From positions 1-5,627 of the IMG/VR virus record IMGVR_UViG_2534681978_000011: a DNA stretch of 5,627 bases. One strand, given 5' to 3'. How positions within the stretch are numbered: position 1 is the stretch's first letter; the number at the start of each line of letters is the position of its first letter. The DNA is from a virus (taxonomy: Duplodnaviria; Heunggongvirae; Uroviricota; Caudoviricetes). Below, piece after piece: positions 1,697 through 5,627 of this stretch. The notes below the pieces were generated by a model. It ran no database searches. It saw only the letters and a list, made by a program, of their open reading frames with translations, and had not been told where the DNA came from. The position numbers and the translations under genes are program-made.

Positions 1697-1723
1697 CAAT
1701 AAAAAGCCCCGCGAATGCGAGGC
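1697..1723 (-). terminator. Candidate rho-independent terminator or RNA hairpin between the spanin region and the 95-aa gene
   Basis: Minus-strand RNA: 7-bp stem GCCUCGC / GCGGGGC (one G-U), loop AUUC, followed by UUUUUAUU. Confidence 0.4.
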
Positions 1724-1758
1724 TAAATCCTGGTGTTTGTGATGAACTGGCTCTTATC

Positions 1759-1911
1759 TCAACGCAGCCCCTTACCGCGCGCCAGATGCTCAACTTCAAG
1801 CATCAGCAATGAGATGTTTAATCTGGATTCACTCCAGAAGTGATCACCACCCTGTCTACAGAGCCAGATGTGAAGGATGATAAGTAAAATTATCGCTATC
1901 ATCGAAGGCAT
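1759..1911 (-). CDS. Candidate small membrane protein, 50 aa (low confidence; may just be the out-of-frame tail of the frameshifted Rz region)
   Basis: ATG at 1911-1909 with AGGA 5 nt upstream. Product MPSMIAIILLIILHIWLCRQGG... has one hydrophobic helix-like segment. It overlaps the reconstructed Rz stop. Confidence 0.2.
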   Translation of the reverse strand: MPSMIAIILLIILHIWLCRQGGDHFWSESRLNISLLMLEVEHLARGKGLR

Positions 1912-2341
1912 TGCGTCCTGATGTATTCCTGAAGCGTTCTCAAACTGCGCGGTTATCCTGTCGATTCCACTTCGGAGACGGTAATAATTGAGTTCAGCAT
2001 CTGCTGTAAGTCTTGGGCTTTCTCCATCGCCCATGCTGCTGGCGTCCGGTCCGTTAGACTTTGCACAGGTGGCGGCGAACTTGCAGGCGCTTACGACCAG
2101 CAGAAACATCAGCACGGAGACTTTCGATAGTCGCATTAGCATCAGCAAGCTCCTTTGTATATCTGGCATCGAGTTCTGCTACGTCACGTTGACGCTTCTG
2201 CATGTCAGCGATGATGGATGTGGCTTTATCTCGCTGCTCTTTGTAGGCGATGGCGTTATCACGGTAATGATTAACAGCCCATAACAGGCAGACGATGATG
2301 CAGATAACCAGAGCGGAGATAATCGCGGTGACTCTGCTCAT
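1899..2341 (-). pseudogene. Rz: Rz inner-membrane spanin (i-spanin), disrupted by two +1 frameshifts in the sequence as given
   Basis: N-terminal 87 aa (frame of the ATG at 2341, [19 protein letters not shown]...AGRKRLQ) closely match lambda Rz, then stop at 2056-2054. The middle segment (ASSMGDGESPRLTADAELNYYRLRSGIDRITAQ, matching lambda ASGVDNAASPRLADTAERDYFTLRERLITMQ) is in the next frame. The C-terminus (LRTLQEYIRTQCLR-stop, matching lambda TQKYINEQCR-stop) is in the third frame, ending at 1901-1899. Removing one nt near 2081-2082 and one near 1942-1944 restores a 146-aa Rz. Confidence 0.75.
1953..2142 (-). pseudogene. Rz1: Rz1 outer-membrane lipoprotein spanin (o-spanin), embedded in Rz, disrupted by the first frameshift
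   Basis: ATG at 2142 with SD AAAGGAG. Signal peptide plus lipobox [20 protein letters not shown] (lambda: MLKLKMMLCVMMLPLVVVGC). The Pro-rich mature part ([19 protein letters not shown]...NSIITVSEVESTG, stop 1955-1953) is in the adjacent frame. The same 1-nt correction near 2081-2082 rejoins both Rz and Rz1. Confidence 0.7.
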
Positions 2342-2814
2342 ACCTCAATCTCTCTGACCGTTCCGCCAGCCTCTTTGAATTTTGCAATCAGGCTGTCAGC
2401 CTTATGCTCGAACTGACCATAACCAGCGCCCGGCAGTGAAGCCCAGATATTGCTGCAACGGTCGATAGCCTGACGGATATCACCGCGATCAATCATCGGT
2501 AAAGCGCCACGCTCTTTAATCTGCTGCAATGCCACAGCGTCCTGGCTTTTGGGAGAGAAATCTTTCAGGCCAAGCTGCTTACGATAGGCATCCCACCAAC
2601 GGGAAAGAAGCTGGTAACGTCCGGCGGCTGTTGATTTGAGTTTGGGGTTTAGCGTGACAAGTTTGCGAGGGTGATCAGAGTAATCAGTGAATAGCTCTCC
2701 GCCTACAATGACGTCATAACCATGATTTCTGGTTTTCTGTCGTCCGTTATCAGTCCCCTCTGACCACGCCAGCATATCGAGGAACGCCTTACGTTGATTA
2801 TTGATTTCCACCAT
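2338..2814 (-). CDS. R: Endolysin R (lambda-type lytic transglycosylase), 158 aa
   Basis: Protein [61 protein letters not shown]... is essentially identical to lambda R as recalled. ATGA overlap with the Rz start. Overlaps the S 3' end as in lambda. Confidence 0.95.
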
Positions 2815-3121
2815 CTTCTACTCCGGCTTTTTTAGCAGCGACGCGTTTGATAAGCGAACCAATCGAGTCAGTGCCGATGTAGCCGATGAACACGCTCGTT
2901 ATATAAGCGAGATTGCTACTTAGTCCGGCGAAGTCGAGAAGGTCACGAATGAACCAGGCGATAATGGCGCACATCGTTGCGTCGATTACTGTTTTTGTAA
3001 ACGCACCGCCATTATATCTGCCGCGAAGGTACGCCATTGCAAACGCAAGGATTGCCCCGATGCCTTGTTCCTTTGCCGCGAGAATGGCGGCTAACAGGTC
3101 ATGTTTTTCTGGCATCTTCAT
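2798..3121 (-). CDS. S: Holin S (lambda class I holin with dual-start motif MKMPEK: S107 antiholin / S105 holin), 107 aa
   Basis: Protein [64 protein letters not shown]... matches lambda S. The GGGGG SD and upstream leader match lambda. Confidence 0.95.
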
Positions 3122-3363
3122 GTCTTACCCCCAATAAGGGGATTTGCTCTATTTAATTAGGAATAAGGTCGATTACTGATAGAACAAATCCAGGCTACTG
3201 TGTTTAGTAATCAGATTTGTTCGTGACCGATATGCACGAGCAAAACGGCATGAGGTTGTTAGCGCAGCCTCTTGCCACCCGCTTTCACGAAGGTCATGTT
3301 TAGAAGGCCGCAGCGTAACTATCACTGATGAATTCAGGATAGCCAGTGGCTACGGCTCAGTTA
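3122..3363 (-). other. Lambda-type late leader upstream of S, including the S translational-control region
   Basis: Minus strand CTGAGCCGTAGCCACTGGCTATCCTGAATTCATCAGTGATAGTTACGCTGCGGCC...GATTACTAAACACAGTAGCCTGGATTTGTTCTATCAGTAATCGACCTTATTCCTAATTAAATAGAGCAAATCCCCTTATTGGGGGTAAGACATGAAGATG closely matches the lambda sequence preceding S as recalled. Confidence 0.7.
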
Positions 3364-3439
3364 TGGTGCTGGTTAACGGACTTGAACCGCTACCCATTCG
3401 CTTACAAGGCGACTGCTCTACCATTGGAGCTAAACCAGC
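3364..3439 (-). tRNA. tRNA-Thr (anticodon UGU), 76 nt including encoded CCA
   Basis: Manual cloverleaf on the minus strand: acceptor GCTGGTT/AACCAGC (7 bp perfect), D-arm GCTC-CAATGGTA-GAGC, anticodon loop CTTGTAA, T-arm AGCGG-TTCAAGT-CCGTT, discriminator A, CCA. Confidence 0.75.
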
Positions 3440-3444
3440 ATGTT

Positions 3445-3519
3445 TGGCGGGACAGCGTGGACTCGAACCACGATAAGAAGGTTAACAGCCTTCCGTAATG
3501 ACCTTTATACGACTGACCC
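3445..3519 (-). tRNA. tRNA-Asn-like (anticodon GUU), 75 nt including encoded CCA
   Basis: Manual cloverleaf on the minus strand: acceptor GGGTCAG/CTGTCCC (6 of 7 pairs, one U-U), D-loop AAAGGTCA, anticodon stem GAAGG/CCTTC with loop CTGTTAA (matches the E. coli tRNA-Asn loop), T-arm CGTGG-TTCGAGT-CCACG, discriminator G, CCA. Confidence 0.65.
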
Positions 3520-3564
3520 AAATAAAAAAGCCACCGTTGCAACTTAAGAGTCACTAACGGCAGC
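3520..3564 (-). terminator. Candidate tR'-like leader terminator immediately downstream of pR'
   Basis: Minus-strand RNA: 9-bp stem GCUGCCGUU / AACGGUGGC (two G-U pairs, so the hairpin is strand-specific), 17-nt loop, followed by UUUUUUAUUU. It ends 1 nt before the tRNA-Asn 5' end. Confidence 0.4.
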
Positions 3565-3574
3565 TTACCTGCTA

Positions 3575-3604
3575 ATTATGGCTAAATGGCTAATTGCATG
3601 TCAA
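3575..3604 (-). promoter_or_regulatory. Late promoter pR'-like sigma-70 promoter (-35 TTGACA, 18-nt spacer, -10 CATAAT), overlapping the last codons of Q
   Basis: Minus strand: TTGACA (3604-3599), 18-nt spacer, CATAAT (3580-3575). The -35 is a perfect consensus, the -10 is 5/6. Position immediately 3' of the Q gene is as expected for a lambdoid late promoter with its Q-utilisation site. Confidence 0.55.
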
Positions 3605-4100
3605 GGCTTTTAACAGCAACATGCTTAACTTTCTCAACACGTTTACGCATTTTGAAAGCATTTTGCATTGGCTGGTACAAAACAAATAACGACGCTTTCA
3701 GGATGTCGTCAATTTCGTTTCTACAGGTTGCCAGTGAAGGTTTTCTCCATCCCTCGCCACCACGTCCACACATCTTGCGTGGCTTTGCAGTCGCGTGATA
3801 GTAGGATGCAATTGCTCGCTTAGATGAACCATGAGCGTAGTAGCTGAGGAGGATGCCAAAGGCTTTCTTGTCAATGTACATGACGGAATCGACGACCTGA
3901 GAAATCAACATTCCATCATCATCATTACACATTGGCCTTGTCATAATTCTTCCCGGCTCTACGCTCTCCATGAACTTCGCTATTACGCTGCTCATGCGCT
4001 TTTCCAGACGACCTGAATAAACCCATGCGCCCCACAGTTCAAGCCAGCCATTCAGCCACTCATGCTGTTCTTTGGTGAGGTTTAGTTCTCTTATGCCCAT
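3582..4100 (-). CDS. Q: Late-gene antiterminator Q (phage-82 / DLP12 QuuD-like family, not lambda-Q type), 172 aa
   Basis: Position between ninI and the late promoter/lysis genes. Motifs [21 protein letters not shown] and [10 protein letters not shown] parallel QuuD-type Q proteins as recalled (LERWGAW, RPQCCDDDAMII, LLVDYYVVG). SD GGGAGAAGG before the ATG at 4100. Confidence 0.8.
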
Positions 4101-4762
4101 GCGCCTTCTCCCTGTACCTGAATCAATGTGAGGTTTCCGCAGAACACTGCTCCGGTATCGATATACATTTGGTTGGCAAATTTAAGTGGTTTCACTGCTG
4201 GCGTATGACCAAAGATGAACGTGTCCGCGCCTTTGATTTCTTTCACGATCCCGTCTTGTGAGTTGCTGATTCGTTCGCGGTTCCAGATTACCTGCTGATG
4301 ATCAACTGGCTTTCCAAACTCGTATTCGTCACAAGGATAATCGGCGTGGCAGATGACATATTTTTTACCTTCGCTCACCAGTTCGATGATTAACGGAAGT
4401 TCATCTGCTTTATGAGCAAGAGCTTTAGCCAGAATTTCTTTGTCGTAATCGAGATTAAAGAACCAGCCACCGCCATTAAGCATCCAGTGATTGACGTTTC
4501 CGCGCTCTGATAAGCCATCAATCATCATTTGCTCATGGTTTCCACGTACAGCTCGGAACCAGGGGAATGTGATTAATTCCAGACATTCGACGTTCTCTGT
4601 ACCGCGATCGACCAAATCGCCAACCGAGATAAGCAGGTCTTTTTTGGTGTCGAATCCTATCGTCTCCAGTTTTTTCATCAGGTTCGTGTAGCATCCGTGC
4701 AGATCGCCAACTACCCAAATATTTCGGTATTTGCTGCCATCAATTTTTTCGTAATAGCGCAT
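4091..4762 (-). CDS. ninI: Ser/Thr protein phosphatase (lambda PPase, NinI / ORF221 homologue), 223 aa
   Basis: From the ATG at 4762 (SD GGAGTGAAAGAG) the protein [29 protein letters not shown]...GNHE... matches lambda phosphatase with the metallophosphatase motifs GDLHG, GDLVDRG and GNHE. The 248-aa track ORF has a 25-codon upstream extension overlapping ninH. Confidence 0.9.
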
Positions 4763-4946
4763 CTCTTTCACTCCATCCGCGATGAACCATGAGAACGTCG
4801 TTGACGATGGCGTGCATTTTCCCGTCTTTATCATCAACGTATTTTCTGACCGTACCGCGACTACATTTCAGTCTGCGTGCTACTTCTGTCTGGTTTCCGT
4901 ATGCTTCAACGAGCATGTCTGGAATGGTTTTTACTGAGAACGTCAT
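4740..4946 (-). CDS. ninH: NinH, 68 aa
   Basis: [68 protein letters not shown] matches lambda NinH. ATGA start/stop overlap with ninG. Confidence 0.9.
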
Positions 4947-5554
4947 GCGGCCTCACTTCTGCTATTTCGCAGGTCTTTGAGTTTCTGCTGATACTCCGCC
5001 TTGATGGCCCTGCACTCTTCGACAGTCCAGCGATGGCGGTTATGGTTTGATTCGATTTCGTCTACTGCTTCCTGCCCGATGCGATTAATCAGTTCGACGC
5101 GATACGGAACGAGATTTCCGCTTTTGTGCTGGTTGCACACCACGCATTGCTTGTGAATATTGCGTTCATCAAATCGGAGTTGAGGTGCCGCAGCAGTTGT
5201 CCGGTAATGTCCGGCATCCCACTGAGCAGACGTGAGCGTTCCGCACGAGATACATGGTAAGTCGCGGTCTCTTTCTCTGATGAAGGCGTTTACGGCTTGT
5301 TGGGCTTGTTTAATCCAGTAACTGCGGGGCTTTAAGGCGAGTTTTCGAATCTTAAGTTTATCTTTCTGTTTCTGCTCCTCTCGTCGTCGTTTCTTCTCTG
5401 CTGCTTTTTCCGCTTTTTCGCGTTCTTTGCTTCGTCGTTCGAGTGCTATCTTGGTTCCACACTCTGGAGAGCACCACCACTGATTAGCGAATGCAGGGTG
5501 AAACCATTCCCGACATTCATCGTTTTTACATCGTCTTCGCGCTGGTTTAGCCAT
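4943..5554 (-). CDS. ninG: NinG (Rap recombination-associated structure-specific endonuclease), 203 aa
   Basis: [50 protein letters not shown]... matches lambda NinG across its length. SD GAGGAAG upstream of the ATG at 5554. Confidence 0.9.
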
Positions 5555-5627
5555 CGTCTTCTTCCTCGTACATTGAGCTATTCGGATCGCTCATCAGTTC
5601 TGCGCAGCAGTGCTCACACACGTGAAC
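5547..5627 (-). CDS. ninF: NinF, 3' partial (N-terminus lies beyond the window end)
   Basis: Minus-strand translation [26 protein letters not shown]-stop matches the lambda NinF C-terminus. Its stop overlaps the ninG start. Confidence 0.7.

Follow-up and report, generated by a model that had tools for sequence, protein, structure and literature searches.

The spanin genes that close the lambda-type S-R lysis cassette of a mosaic lambdoid prophage are of a known kind: an ordinary embedded two-component pair of the P22/Sf6/epsilon34 type, with a 145-aa Rz and Rz1 in its +1 frame. We analyzed this locus within a window of 5,627 nt, which is the whole stretch of viral DNA under study and the source of all coordinates given here. 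The features that frame the spanin genes are as follows.

3575-3604, minus strand: PR'-like late promoter (TTGACA-18-CATAAT) at the end of Q; 11/12 matches in a consensus scan
2798-3121, minus strand: holin S, 107 aa, with an MKM dual-start motif, intact; Pfam Phage_holin_3_1, E = 5e-30
2338-2814, minus strand: endolysin R, 158 aa, intact; phrog_90 endolysin, E = 1.6e-63
1759-1911, minus strand: conserved hydrophobic 50-aa ORF of the Sf6 gp65 / epsilon34 gp67 type, overlapping the Rz stop, intact; phrog_11822, unknown function
1705-1724, minus strand: intrinsic terminator after the lysis cassette, found by a terminator scan and annotated as the same element in epsilon34

The position of the PR'-like promoter corresponds to that of PR' as annotated in phage epsilon34, at the start of the lysis transcription unit. 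Rz, which begins at 2341, occupies the position of a spanin gene, following S (2798-3121) and R (2338-2814) with the promoter upstream and the terminator at 1724-1705 behind it. Holin S has the length seen in all relatives, and the exact R and 50-aa proteins occur in 27,688 and 9,333 index blocks, respectively, of a public assembly collection. S, R, Q, NinI, NinH, and NinG are all intact and identical to those of relatives; the full-length products and Pfam/PHROG matches of S and R bear out the first-pass annotation, made from the sequence alone, which had described holin and endolysin as intact. The window itself is a mosaic, with an O104:H4-like left part, an Sf6-like middle, and a right part that resembles Escherichia coli EEC_W5.

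Rz and Rz1 are split across reading frames

Unlike its neighbors, the spanin pair is encoded in pieces.

2054-2341, minus strand: truncated Rz ORF, 95 aa, from the ORF list; matched by Pfam Phage_lysis
1945-2077, minus strand: Rz linker and second coiled coil (...ATCAKS...SPRL...ITAQ) in a second frame; Pfam Phage_lysis positions 67-116 of 126
1899-1941, minus strand: Rz C-terminus, (L)RTLQEYIRTQCLR*, in a third frame, identified by translation; natural stop at 1901-1899
2083-2142, minus strand: Rz1 start codon, signal peptide, and lipobox (VSAC), identified from the sequence and a lipobox regular expression
1953-2077, minus strand: Rz1 mature Pro-rich domain in the third frame, identified by translation and, after repair, by Pfam Rz1

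Three-frame translation of the minus strand places Rz homology at 2341-2080, then 2077-1945, then 1941-1899. Frame 0 encodes the N-terminus and closes with ...RKRLQV followed by RRHLCKV*, frame 1 encodes the middle (...ATCAKS..SPRLTADAELNYYRLRSGIDRITAQ), and frame 2 encodes the end (LRTLQEYIRTQCLR*). The 95-aa ORF comprises 88 native residues, covering the transmembrane domain and first coiled coil, followed by RRHLCKV and a stop; it matches positions 13-69 of 126 in Pfam Phage_lysis (E = 1e-16) and is 71% identical to residues 1-96 of lambda Rz. The long alternative-frame ORF takes up the same profile at positions 67-116 of 126 (E = 8e-6). These matches confirm that the frame switches in Rz, which the first-pass annotation had traced through all three minus-strand frames, are real and far above chance level. 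An i-spanin of PF03245 has an N-terminal transmembrane domain and periplasmic coiled coil in a single ORF, whereas the longest native piece here is 88 aa and the homology extends over three frames. The C-terminal domain of Rz binds Rz1, and a Cys near its C-terminus serves for an intermolecular disulfide (PMC5295617); the corresponding ...YIRTQCLR* with its Cys is found at 1899-1941 in the third frame only, outside any Rz translated from the given DNA.

Rz1 is likewise divided. Its start codon, at 2142-2140, has the position of the annotated start of epsilon34 gene 66A and is preceded by an AAGGAG Shine-Dalgarno sequence at 2155-2150, and its lipobox Cys codon is 2085-2083. The mature part (SPPPVQS...PAAWAMEKAQDLQQMLNSIITVSEVESTG*) lies in the frame after that of the signal and ends at a natural TAA stop at 1955-1953. 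An o-spanin carries signal, lipobox Cys, and Pro-rich domain in one ORF in the +1 frame of Rz; here the mature domain is out of frame from 2077, and translation agrees with the earlier assignment of signal and lipobox (2142-2083) and mature part (2077-1953) to different frames. The DNA as written can give neither spanin subunit: Rz ends with only 88 native residues, and Rz1 leaves its frame two codons past the lipobox Cys.

Extra bases in the Rz/Rz1 overlap

Alignment to relatives reveals five extra bases in Rz/Rz1 of the window, at 2078/79, 2056, 2051/52, 2044, and 1942-44. They fall within 136 nt, and two of them are net frameshifts.

2078-2079, minus strand: frameshift 1, one extra T (minus-strand GT to GTT); a gap column in all alignments to 145-aa-type relatives
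2044-2056, minus strand: T2056, G2051/52, and C2044, each a private one-base insertion; net +3, from alignments
1932-1944, minus strand: frameshift 2 and allele joint, net +1, from alignments with loci L006, L012, L016, and L025

Frameshift 1 is private among 22 aligned loci and, falling two codons past the Rz1 lipobox Cys, breaks Rz and Rz1 at once. Within the middle group, T2056 creates the TAA that ends the 95-aa ORF. The three insertions together change AKS-TTGA-SS to a string of ten residues, in a patch that is a perfect CGGAC-CGGAC tandem repeat at the DNA level, and their deletion returns the consensus AKSTTGASS in Rz and QSQRPEPAAW in Rz1. At the distal joint, sequence of the 145-aa type runs to ...GCGCAG (1945) and is followed by TT and then by an 11-nt tract, TGAGAACGCTT (1942-1932), that belongs to the 155-aa Rz allele; the last 43 nt of Rz (1900-1942) are 100% identical to the 3' end of that allele. 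The idea that the inserted bases are a patchwork drawn from the 155-aa allele was rejected, as it fits only the 11-nt tract at 1932-1942 and the other four insertions mismatch.

When all five bases are deleted, both overlapping frames read the commonest linker at 2044-2078 (VAATCAKSTTGASSMGDGE for Rz, CKSPPPVQSQRPEPAAWAMEK... for Rz1), with zero leftover substitutions. Because this deletion restores the commonest linker, the "NGPDA" patch appears to be consensus plus noise and not a diverged allele. The repaired Rz covers positions 13-125 of 126 in the Phage_lysis profile (PF03245), its C-terminus still being a 145/155-type hybrid, and the repaired Rz1 spans the full Pfam Rz1 profile (PF06085, positions 1-41 of 41, E = 8.6e-17).

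These alignments refine the first-pass annotation, which had attributed the damage to two +1 frameshifts. Two net shifts do break both genes, but the extra bases number five, not two. It had also proposed deleting one base in the forward TT at 2081-2082; such a deletion restores the frames but yields LQF and ACSS where the consensus has LQV and ACKS, and homology instead puts the extra base in the forward AA at 2078-2079. The second extra base does align where it had been placed, in the AAA run at 1942-1944, adjoining the 11-nt tract of the 155-aa allele.

The insertions are private to the window

Relatives are all exactly five bases shorter than the window over the aligned stretches (666 vs 671, 176 vs 181, and 437 vs 442 nt). 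We searched 5,426 complete E. coli genomes, 50,697 phage records, plasmids, IMG/VR, metagenomes, and GTDB genomes without meeting any of the five extra bases: 28-mers across the insertion sites had no match in the complete genomes or phage records, and IMG/VR, JGI metagenomes, and GTDB genomes returned 0 matches to exact patterns. An exact match to the distal joint (1932-1944) was absent from every collection scanned, and exact look-ups of the 95-aa and 136-aa products returned no record. The loci retrieved through R, the 50-aa ORF, or the downstream 95-aa ORF all have an intact Rz. A natural NGPDA allele or an in-frame ITAQ-LRTLQEY hybrid was found neither in E. coli genomes, phage records, and plasmids nor among the best 120 cluster representatives of 7,931 Rz hits, which stand for 90% clusters that might conceal a rare member. 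In all relatives inspected, Rz is one protein of 145 or 155 aa and Rz1, embedded in its gene, has 61 aa, which speaks against the idea that the 95-aa product and the long alternative-frame ORF are normal proteins of related phages. A literature search on rzpR/rzoR pseudogenes yielded nothing useful.

A second, smaller cluster of the same character lies far from the spanin genes.

154-162, no strand assigned: AA extended to AAA and CCC to CCCC by private one-base insertions (extra bases 157 and 161), non-coding, upstream of Nu1, from alignment to 10 O104:H4-type loci

Among 532 E. coli records with at least 99% identity over this stretch, the best identity is 99.3%, which amounts to exactly two gap columns, and these insertions are the sole differences in a 281-nt stretch common to >500 genomes. 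Private insertions in the window total seven, with no deletions (two-sided sign test p = 0.016), and five of the seven are inside 140 nt (simulation p about 4e-5). An extra A at 1745 was considered as a further private insertion and set aside as a natural polymorphism, as locus L016 has it too. Selection on spanins is unable to account for the insertions at 154-162, and this second cluster points to a common, non-biological cause.

Consensus error or genuine lesion

The likeliest source of the extra bases is a local sequencing error; failing that, they would be a very recent mutation of the ordinary gene-killing kind. We lean toward a local consensus error as the probable cause of the Rz/Rz1 frame breaks, in preference to a genuine recent spanin-null lesion, and we infer it from the frame breaks, the uniqueness of the bases, their insertion-only clustering, and the consensus that returns on their removal, all of which are direct observations. 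The record would then contain five spurious single-base insertions, and the actual phage would have a normal Rz of ~145 aa and Rz1 of ~61 aa. In keeping with the mechanism described in the literature, Rz would reside in the inner membrane and Rz1 would be an outer-membrane lipoprotein, with their C-termini binding across the periplasm; once holin and endolysin had acted, the pair would fuse both membranes and thereby finish lysis.

Error is favored over biology because the spectrum is clustered and insertion-only without other decay: 1945-2042 has 0 mismatches against many relatives, 2627-5627 differs from E. coli EEC_W5 by one SNP, and the remaining genes are intact. Kongari et al. give sequencing error as the first reason for spanins seeming to be missing (PMC6139136). 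That single SNP and the intact state of the other genes also rule out a globally error-prone assembly. Several observations nevertheless sit uneasily with an error. Outside these sites the window is of very high quality, with no frameshift in ~5 kb of genes, and any error would have to be strictly local. Furthermore, two of the five insertions fail to extend a homopolymer (one T falls between C and A, one C between A and G), and the insertion sites contain only short runs, a pattern atypical of the usual platform errors. Finally, random noise cannot account for the 11-nt tract of the 155-aa allele, which calls for a real recombination event or for a consensus that is a chimera of two co-resident prophages.

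Alternatively, the insertions may be real and the prophage a recent spanin-null mutant, a reading that we hold possible but would not expect to prevail. In such a mutant, S and R would permeabilize the inner membrane and degrade the wall while the outer membrane would stay in place without Rz/Rz1, such that induced cells would become round and would need shear or low divalent cations to release phage. The distal frameshift would be an out-of-register recombination joint between Rz of the 145-aa and 155-aa types, with the other insertions as later or associated lesions. Pseudogenization is frequent among prophage genes, and the sequence as given encodes just a truncated Rz and a frame-broken Rz1. 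Nonsense mutations throughout the periplasmic domain of lambda Rz are lysis-defective, and the last residue alone is dispensable (PMC5295617). The exact 11-nt tract of another natural allele, beside a region in which the two alleles lack homology, is what an illegitimate or edge-of-homology crossover leaves, and both the mosaic make-up of the window (O104:H4-like, Sf6-like, and EEC_W5-like parts) and the high quality of the flanking sequence fit a real event. However, five one-base insertions in 136 nt without substitutions or deletions would be abnormal for the decay of a bacterial pseudogene, particularly as a single lesion suffices to kill both genes. The lesions are absent from every other genome and metagenome scanned, similar private insertions occur in the unrelated non-coding DNA at 154-162, and removal of the insertions yields the exact consensus linker. 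Both of the options raised in the first-pass annotation, sequencing or assembly indels and a genuinely inactivated spanin step, still stand, and the private insertions and restored consensus lean to error. The accompanying suggestion of a domesticated prophage is not supported, since neither long-term decay nor selection for the lesion is in evidence.

A fusion reading frame and recoding

The frame breaks also create a reading frame that joins parts of three genes.

1759-2142, minus strand: by-product fusion ORF, 127 aa from the Rz1 start (136 aa from an upstream ATG), from the ORF list; matches phrog_3198, phrog_13, and phrog_11822 in that order

It runs from the Rz1 signal and lipobox through Rz residues ~89-133 and 11 out-of-frame residues into the whole 50-aa ORF. 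One could imagine that the two frameshifts made a single-chain protein with the topology of a unimolecular spanin (u-spanin), in which the 127-aa product would tether outer and inner membranes like T1 gp11, but we regard this as highly improbable. The Rz1 ribosome-binding site and start codon are intact, as is the VSAC lipobox (residues 17-20) that would signal lipoylation, and the ORF stays open through Rz ~89-133 into the entire 50-aa ORF. By hydropathy, a strongly hydrophobic segment spans residues 78-96 (Kyte-Doolittle up to 2.95) and is followed by an Arg and a 31-aa tail. The arrangement matches an origin of u-spanins on which Kongari et al. speculated, from an o-spanin whose C-terminal extension gains a transmembrane domain (PMC6139136), and, if the bases were real, the 127-aa fusion might be a natural snapshot of that route, though the chance of this is very slim.

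Against such a function, the fusion product is private to one sequence, with the exact product not on record, and similar proteins are singleton frameshift fusions only, which is not the pattern of a conserved gene. In other assemblies, several unrelated Rz/Rz1 frameshift fusions likewise enter the 50-aa ORF, whose frame must therefore be open well upstream at this locus, and the fusion can thus arise as a by-product of a frameshift. Its periplasmic part would be short, with only ~60 residues taken from the linker and coiled coil of Rz, when the span under discussion for spanins is roughly 25 nm (PMC5295617). Nor does this part resemble the periplasmic domain of a u-spanin in length, in mainly beta structure, or in lacking Cys: Cys26 is periplasmic, and 0/58 known u-spanins have a periplasmic Cys (PMC6139136). 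The product has zero similarity to any u-spanin family, and the reading depends on bases that are probably erroneous.

Expression of Rz/Rz1 regardless of the breaks, through programmed ribosomal frameshifting or transcriptional slippage, has nothing in its favor beyond downstream frames that stay open and is effectively refuted by comparison with relatives, all of which are single-frame and none of which has this arrangement; the first-pass annotation, finding no slippery heptamer, had called it unlikely, and we consider it most implausible: there is no X XXY YYZ heptamer, prfB-like or other known +1 site, or long homopolymer at CAA GTT CGC or CAG TTT GAG, and Rz would need two separate +1 events and Rz1 one more.

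The biological weight of the locus is small, and its lesson is methodological. If the bases are wrong, only the annotation changes, with intact calls for Rz and Rz1 and no call for the 95-aa or 136-aa ORF. Should they prove right, we would have a further defective prophage; as a natural spanin-null lysogen that retains its holin and endolysin, it could allow the arrest of lysis at the outer membrane to be observed. More broadly, private one-base insertions that cluster, that give back the consensus in two frames on removal, and that recur as a second cluster in non-coding DNA may serve as the mark of a local consensus error in an otherwise clean contig.

Comparison with known spanin systems

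T1 gp11, the prototype unimolecular spanin, bears on the fusion ORF only. Like it, the fusion ORF has an N-terminal lipoprotein signal, a hydrophobic segment near the C-terminus, a length of ~130 aa, and a place at the end of the cassette, but the two have no sequence similarity, and the fusion is unconserved, with a short, Rz-derived periplasmic part that contains a Cys and with a 31-aa tail. Public assemblies contain singleton frameshift-fusion ORFs of the spanin locus (P0121-P0139), each present in one contig only. In P0121 (from E. coli O104:H4 LB226692), P0122, and P0131, Rz/Rz1 reads into ...ENASGIHQDAMPSMIAIILL..., or the Rz1 signal is joined to the Rz C-terminus. At the two such loci inspected (L030 and L031), neighboring genes are also fragmented, as in globally error-rich assemblies, whereas the damage in the window is local.

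With lambda Rz/Rz1, the prototype two-component embedded spanin, the window shares the Pfam families Phage_lysis and Rz1. The lambda layout can be traced in its pieces: for Rz an N-terminal transmembrane domain, two coiled coils, and a C-terminal Cys (in the window only in the third frame), and for the lipoprotein partner a mature domain rich in Pro (PMC5295617). Divergence from lambda is seen in the linker, second coiled coil, and mature Rz1 sequence, and the genes in the window are not intact ORFs. A lambdoid prophage of E. coli O104:H4 with a 155-aa Rz (WP_001390466.1) is 99.8% identical to the window over 50-1750 and 100% identical over 1900-1942, including the 11-nt tract TGAGAACGCTT and the C-terminus LRTLQEYIRTQCLR; it has a class II holin and a different lysozyme, whereas the window upstream of 1945 is of the 145-aa type.

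The nearest relatives of the spanin genes are those of the 145-aa Rz type in epsilon34 (genes 66 and 66A), Sf6 (63 and 64), and related P22-like and lambdoid phages, with 94.6-96.4% nucleotide identity over 1750-2420. They share with the window the slot after a lambda-type S and R, the embedded architecture, the downstream 50-aa ORF, and the terminator. They differ in that the five private bases of the window split Rz over three frames and Rz1 over two, and in that the last 13 codons in the window follow the 155-aa allele (LRTLQEY...) where they have VNYLQEY.... Without its five extra bases, the window would carry the commonest Rz and Rz1 linkers.

Gene content and mosaic structure

The stretch corresponds to a lambdoid prophage's late region, with every gene on the minus strand, and S, R and all remaining genes outside Rz/Rz1 are intact.

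Features of the late region
4943-5554, minus, NinG
4740-4946, minus, NinH
4091-4762, minus, NinI phosphatase
3582-4100, minus, Q
3604-3575, minus, PR'-like promoter
3445-3519, minus, tRNA-Asn(GTT)
3364-3439, minus, tRNA-Thr(TGT)
2798-3121, minus, holin S
2338-2814, minus, endolysin R
2341 down to 1899, minus, Rz/Rz1 region
1759-1911, minus, conserved 50-aa hydrophobic ORF
1724-1705, minus, terminator
minus, three small ORFs of unknown function
gene start at 131, minus, Nu1, cos-type small terminase

Because the tRNA-Thr/tRNA-Asn pair (3364-3519) lies between Q/PR' and the holin gene, it is positioned for co-transcription with the late operon; EEC_W5, PSJ-07 and phage vB_EcoP-720R6 have the pair as well. 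The 50-aa ORF overlaps the Rz stop codon (ATGCCTTCGATGA), belongs to phrog_11822 (function unknown) and lacks a Pfam domain. The assembly collection lists its exact protein in 9,333 index blocks, neighboring both Rz allele types; it is a small membrane protein, very widespread, associated with lysis cassettes and with no assigned role. Further left, a 95-aa ORF at 1392-1679 matches phrog_3527 at profile positions 139-230 of 233 only and probably represents what is left of the 3' end of a longer gene, truncated at the mosaic boundary near 1745-1750; the O104:H4 prophage annotation has this truncated form too. A 74-aa ORF at 1074-1364 (MELINGRPGRDF...) matches phrog_6100 (function unknown) completely; it is unannotated in the RefSeq O104:H4 record and called by gene callers in other copies.

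Positions 2627-5627 are one SNP apart from Escherichia coli EEC_W5, and 50-1750 share 99.8% identity with a prophage of E. coli O104:H4; the R-Rz part between them is ~96-97% identical to Sf6, epsilon34, P22-like phages and many E. coli prophages. The closest relative switches sharply at about 1745-1750, 1944/1945 and 2626/2627, with the O104:H4 prophage nearest left of about 1750 and EEC_W5 nearest right of 2626. Such switches may reflect typical lambdoid mosaicism or a contig joining two co-resident prophages. An extra A shortly before the terminator, at 1745 (GATG-ACTGG to GATGAACTGG), was considered as a private insertion and rejected as a natural polymorphism because locus L016 has the same base.

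Rz and Rz1 are interrupted by five extra bases

Three-frame translation reads Rz in frame 0 as MSRVTAII...SAGRKRLQV, then RRHLCKV and a stop; its middle section is in frame 1 and its C-terminal end (LRTLQEYIRTQCLR, then a stop) in frame 2. The Pfam Phage_lysis profile matches the 95-aa ORF of this region at positions 13-69 (E = 1e-16), the alternative-frame ORF at 67-116 (E = 8e-6) and the repaired Rz at 13-125 of 126. The Rz1 start, at 2142, is preceded by an AAGGAG Shine-Dalgarno sequence; the gene encodes a signal peptide with the lipobox VSAC and loses its frame two codons past the lipobox Cys. Its mature domain (SPPPVQS...PAAWAMEKAQDLQQMLNSIITVSEVESTG, then a stop) is in the next frame, and the repaired form is an end-to-end Pfam Rz1 match. 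Translation and Pfam matches thus bear out the first-pass annotation, which had proposed frame switches in both genes beside intact S and R.

Relatives aligned across the Rz stretch were phages (epsilon34, vB_EcoP-720R6, Sf6 and others), plasmid-borne prophages and 29 fetched E. coli loci, and each of them is shorter than the window there by exactly five bases.

Extra bases in the Rz stretch
2078/79, minus, frameshift 1 (proximal): extra T (GT to GTT)
2056, minus, extra T
2051/52, minus, extra G
2044, minus, extra C
1942-1944, minus, frameshift 2 (distal): one extra base in TTT

Deleting a base from the forward TT at 2081-82, as originally proposed, does restore the frames, but homology sites the extra base 3 nt away, at 2078-79. 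The three middle bases sum to +3 and alter AKS-TTGA-SS of Rz, giving an odd NGPDA patch; the T at 2056 creates the TAA ending the 95-aa ORF. Frameshift 2 adjoins an 11-nt tract, TGAGAACGCTT (1942-1932; the 155-aa-type tract ends at 1944). It comes from the 155-aa type, the second common Rz allele, as in the O104:H4 prophage and the loci L012, L016 and L025. Upstream of the tract Rz follows the 145-aa type throughout, so its C-terminus is a hybrid of two natural alleles.

A search of 5,426 complete E. coli genomes and 50,697 phage records found no 28-mer across the insertion sites or the joint. Scans for exact patterns, permitting either state at the shift sites, likewise had no match in IMG/VR, JGI metagenomes or GTDB species genomes. 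The 95-aa and 136-aa products had no record among 153 billion gene positions, and neither NGPDA nor the hybrid C-terminus is present in any of the 120 best representatives drawn from 7,931 Rz homologues. The 20 genomic contexts listed for the exact R protein and for the exact 50-aa ORF all show Rz as one gene, of either 145 or 155 aa.

Sequence error or recent lesion

The initial alternative of sequence error or genuine inactivation holds, with small coordinate corrections, and we lean towards a local sequence or consensus error. Deleting the five bases restores the commonest linker in both frames (VAATCAKSTTGASSMGDGE in Rz, CKSPPPVQSQRPEPAAWAMEK... in Rz1) with no leftover substitutions, so the NGPDA patch represents the consensus with bases inserted into it and not a diverged allele. 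A second private pair of one-base insertions, 4 nt apart at 154-162 (ATACAAGGCCCGAC to ATACAAAGGCCCCGAC; AA to AAA, CCC to CCCC), constitutes the sole differences in a 281-nt non-coding stretch upstream of Nu1 common to >500 E. coli genomes; spanin biology cannot explain these. All seven private indels across the window are insertions, with not one deletion (two-sided sign test p = 0.016), and five of the seven cluster inside 140 nt (simulation p about 4e-5). Neither the intervening nor the flanking DNA shows decay: 1945-2042 has no mismatches, and elsewhere in 1750-3130 private SNPs number only four. The restored linker, the 154-162 pair, the insertion-only spectrum and clustering without decay all point toward artefact.

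A genuine, very recent lesion is a lesser but appreciable possibility. The window is otherwise very clean, in contrast to the error-rich assemblies L030 and L031, where frameshift fusions at the locus sit amid many fragmented genes; two of the insertions do not extend a neighboring base; and the 11-nt tract has to come from genuine recombination or from a consensus that is a chimera of two co-resident prophages.

It is very improbable that the disrupted locus encodes a unimolecular spanin-like protein. Reading from the intact Rz1 start gives a 127-aa fusion in which the lipoprotein signal is followed by Rz residues about 89-133, then by 11 residues read out of frame, and finally by the full 50-aa ORF, hydrophobic helix included. 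The fusion has the outline of a u-spanin and echoes a speculative route to u-spanins (Kongari et al., PMC6139136). However, other assemblies contain several unrelated frameshift fusions that likewise run into the 50-aa ORF, indicating that its frame is open far upstream at this locus and that the fusion can be a frameshift by-product. Moreover, its periplasmic part spans only about 60 residues and contains a cysteine, it has no conserved counterpart, and it depends on probably wrong bases. Programmed frameshifting to rescue Rz/Rz1, dismissed from the outset, is excluded for practical purposes, as it would require three separate events without a slippery site in an arrangement found in no relative.

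Public protein records include singletons (P0121-P0139) in which frameshifts have fused Rz, Rz1 and the 50-aa ORF; one of these, from E. coli O104:H4 LB226692, is named 'putative endopeptidase'. In the two inspected contigs, L030 and L031, terminase, lysozyme and Q are also fragmented, as error-rich assemblies predict.

Consequences for lysis

If the extra bases are erroneous, the phage would carry a normal two-component embedded spanin (mechanism from PMC5295617 and PMC6139136): an N-terminal transmembrane domain would anchor Rz in the inner membrane, lipoylated Rz1 would be directed to the outer membrane, and the two would join via their C-termini and, once holin and endolysin have acted, fuse the membranes. 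If the bases are real, both subunits would be lost and lysis would halt at the outer membrane. Rz1 as written lacks its whole mature domain, and in lambda Rz nonsense mutations anywhere in the periplasmic domain, the last codon excepted, abolish function (PMC5295617). The locus is an ordinary P22/Sf6-type Rz/Rz1 pair. A local sequencing artefact is the likeliest explanation of its apparent disruption; failing that, it would be a recent pseudogenisation of a commonplace kind.
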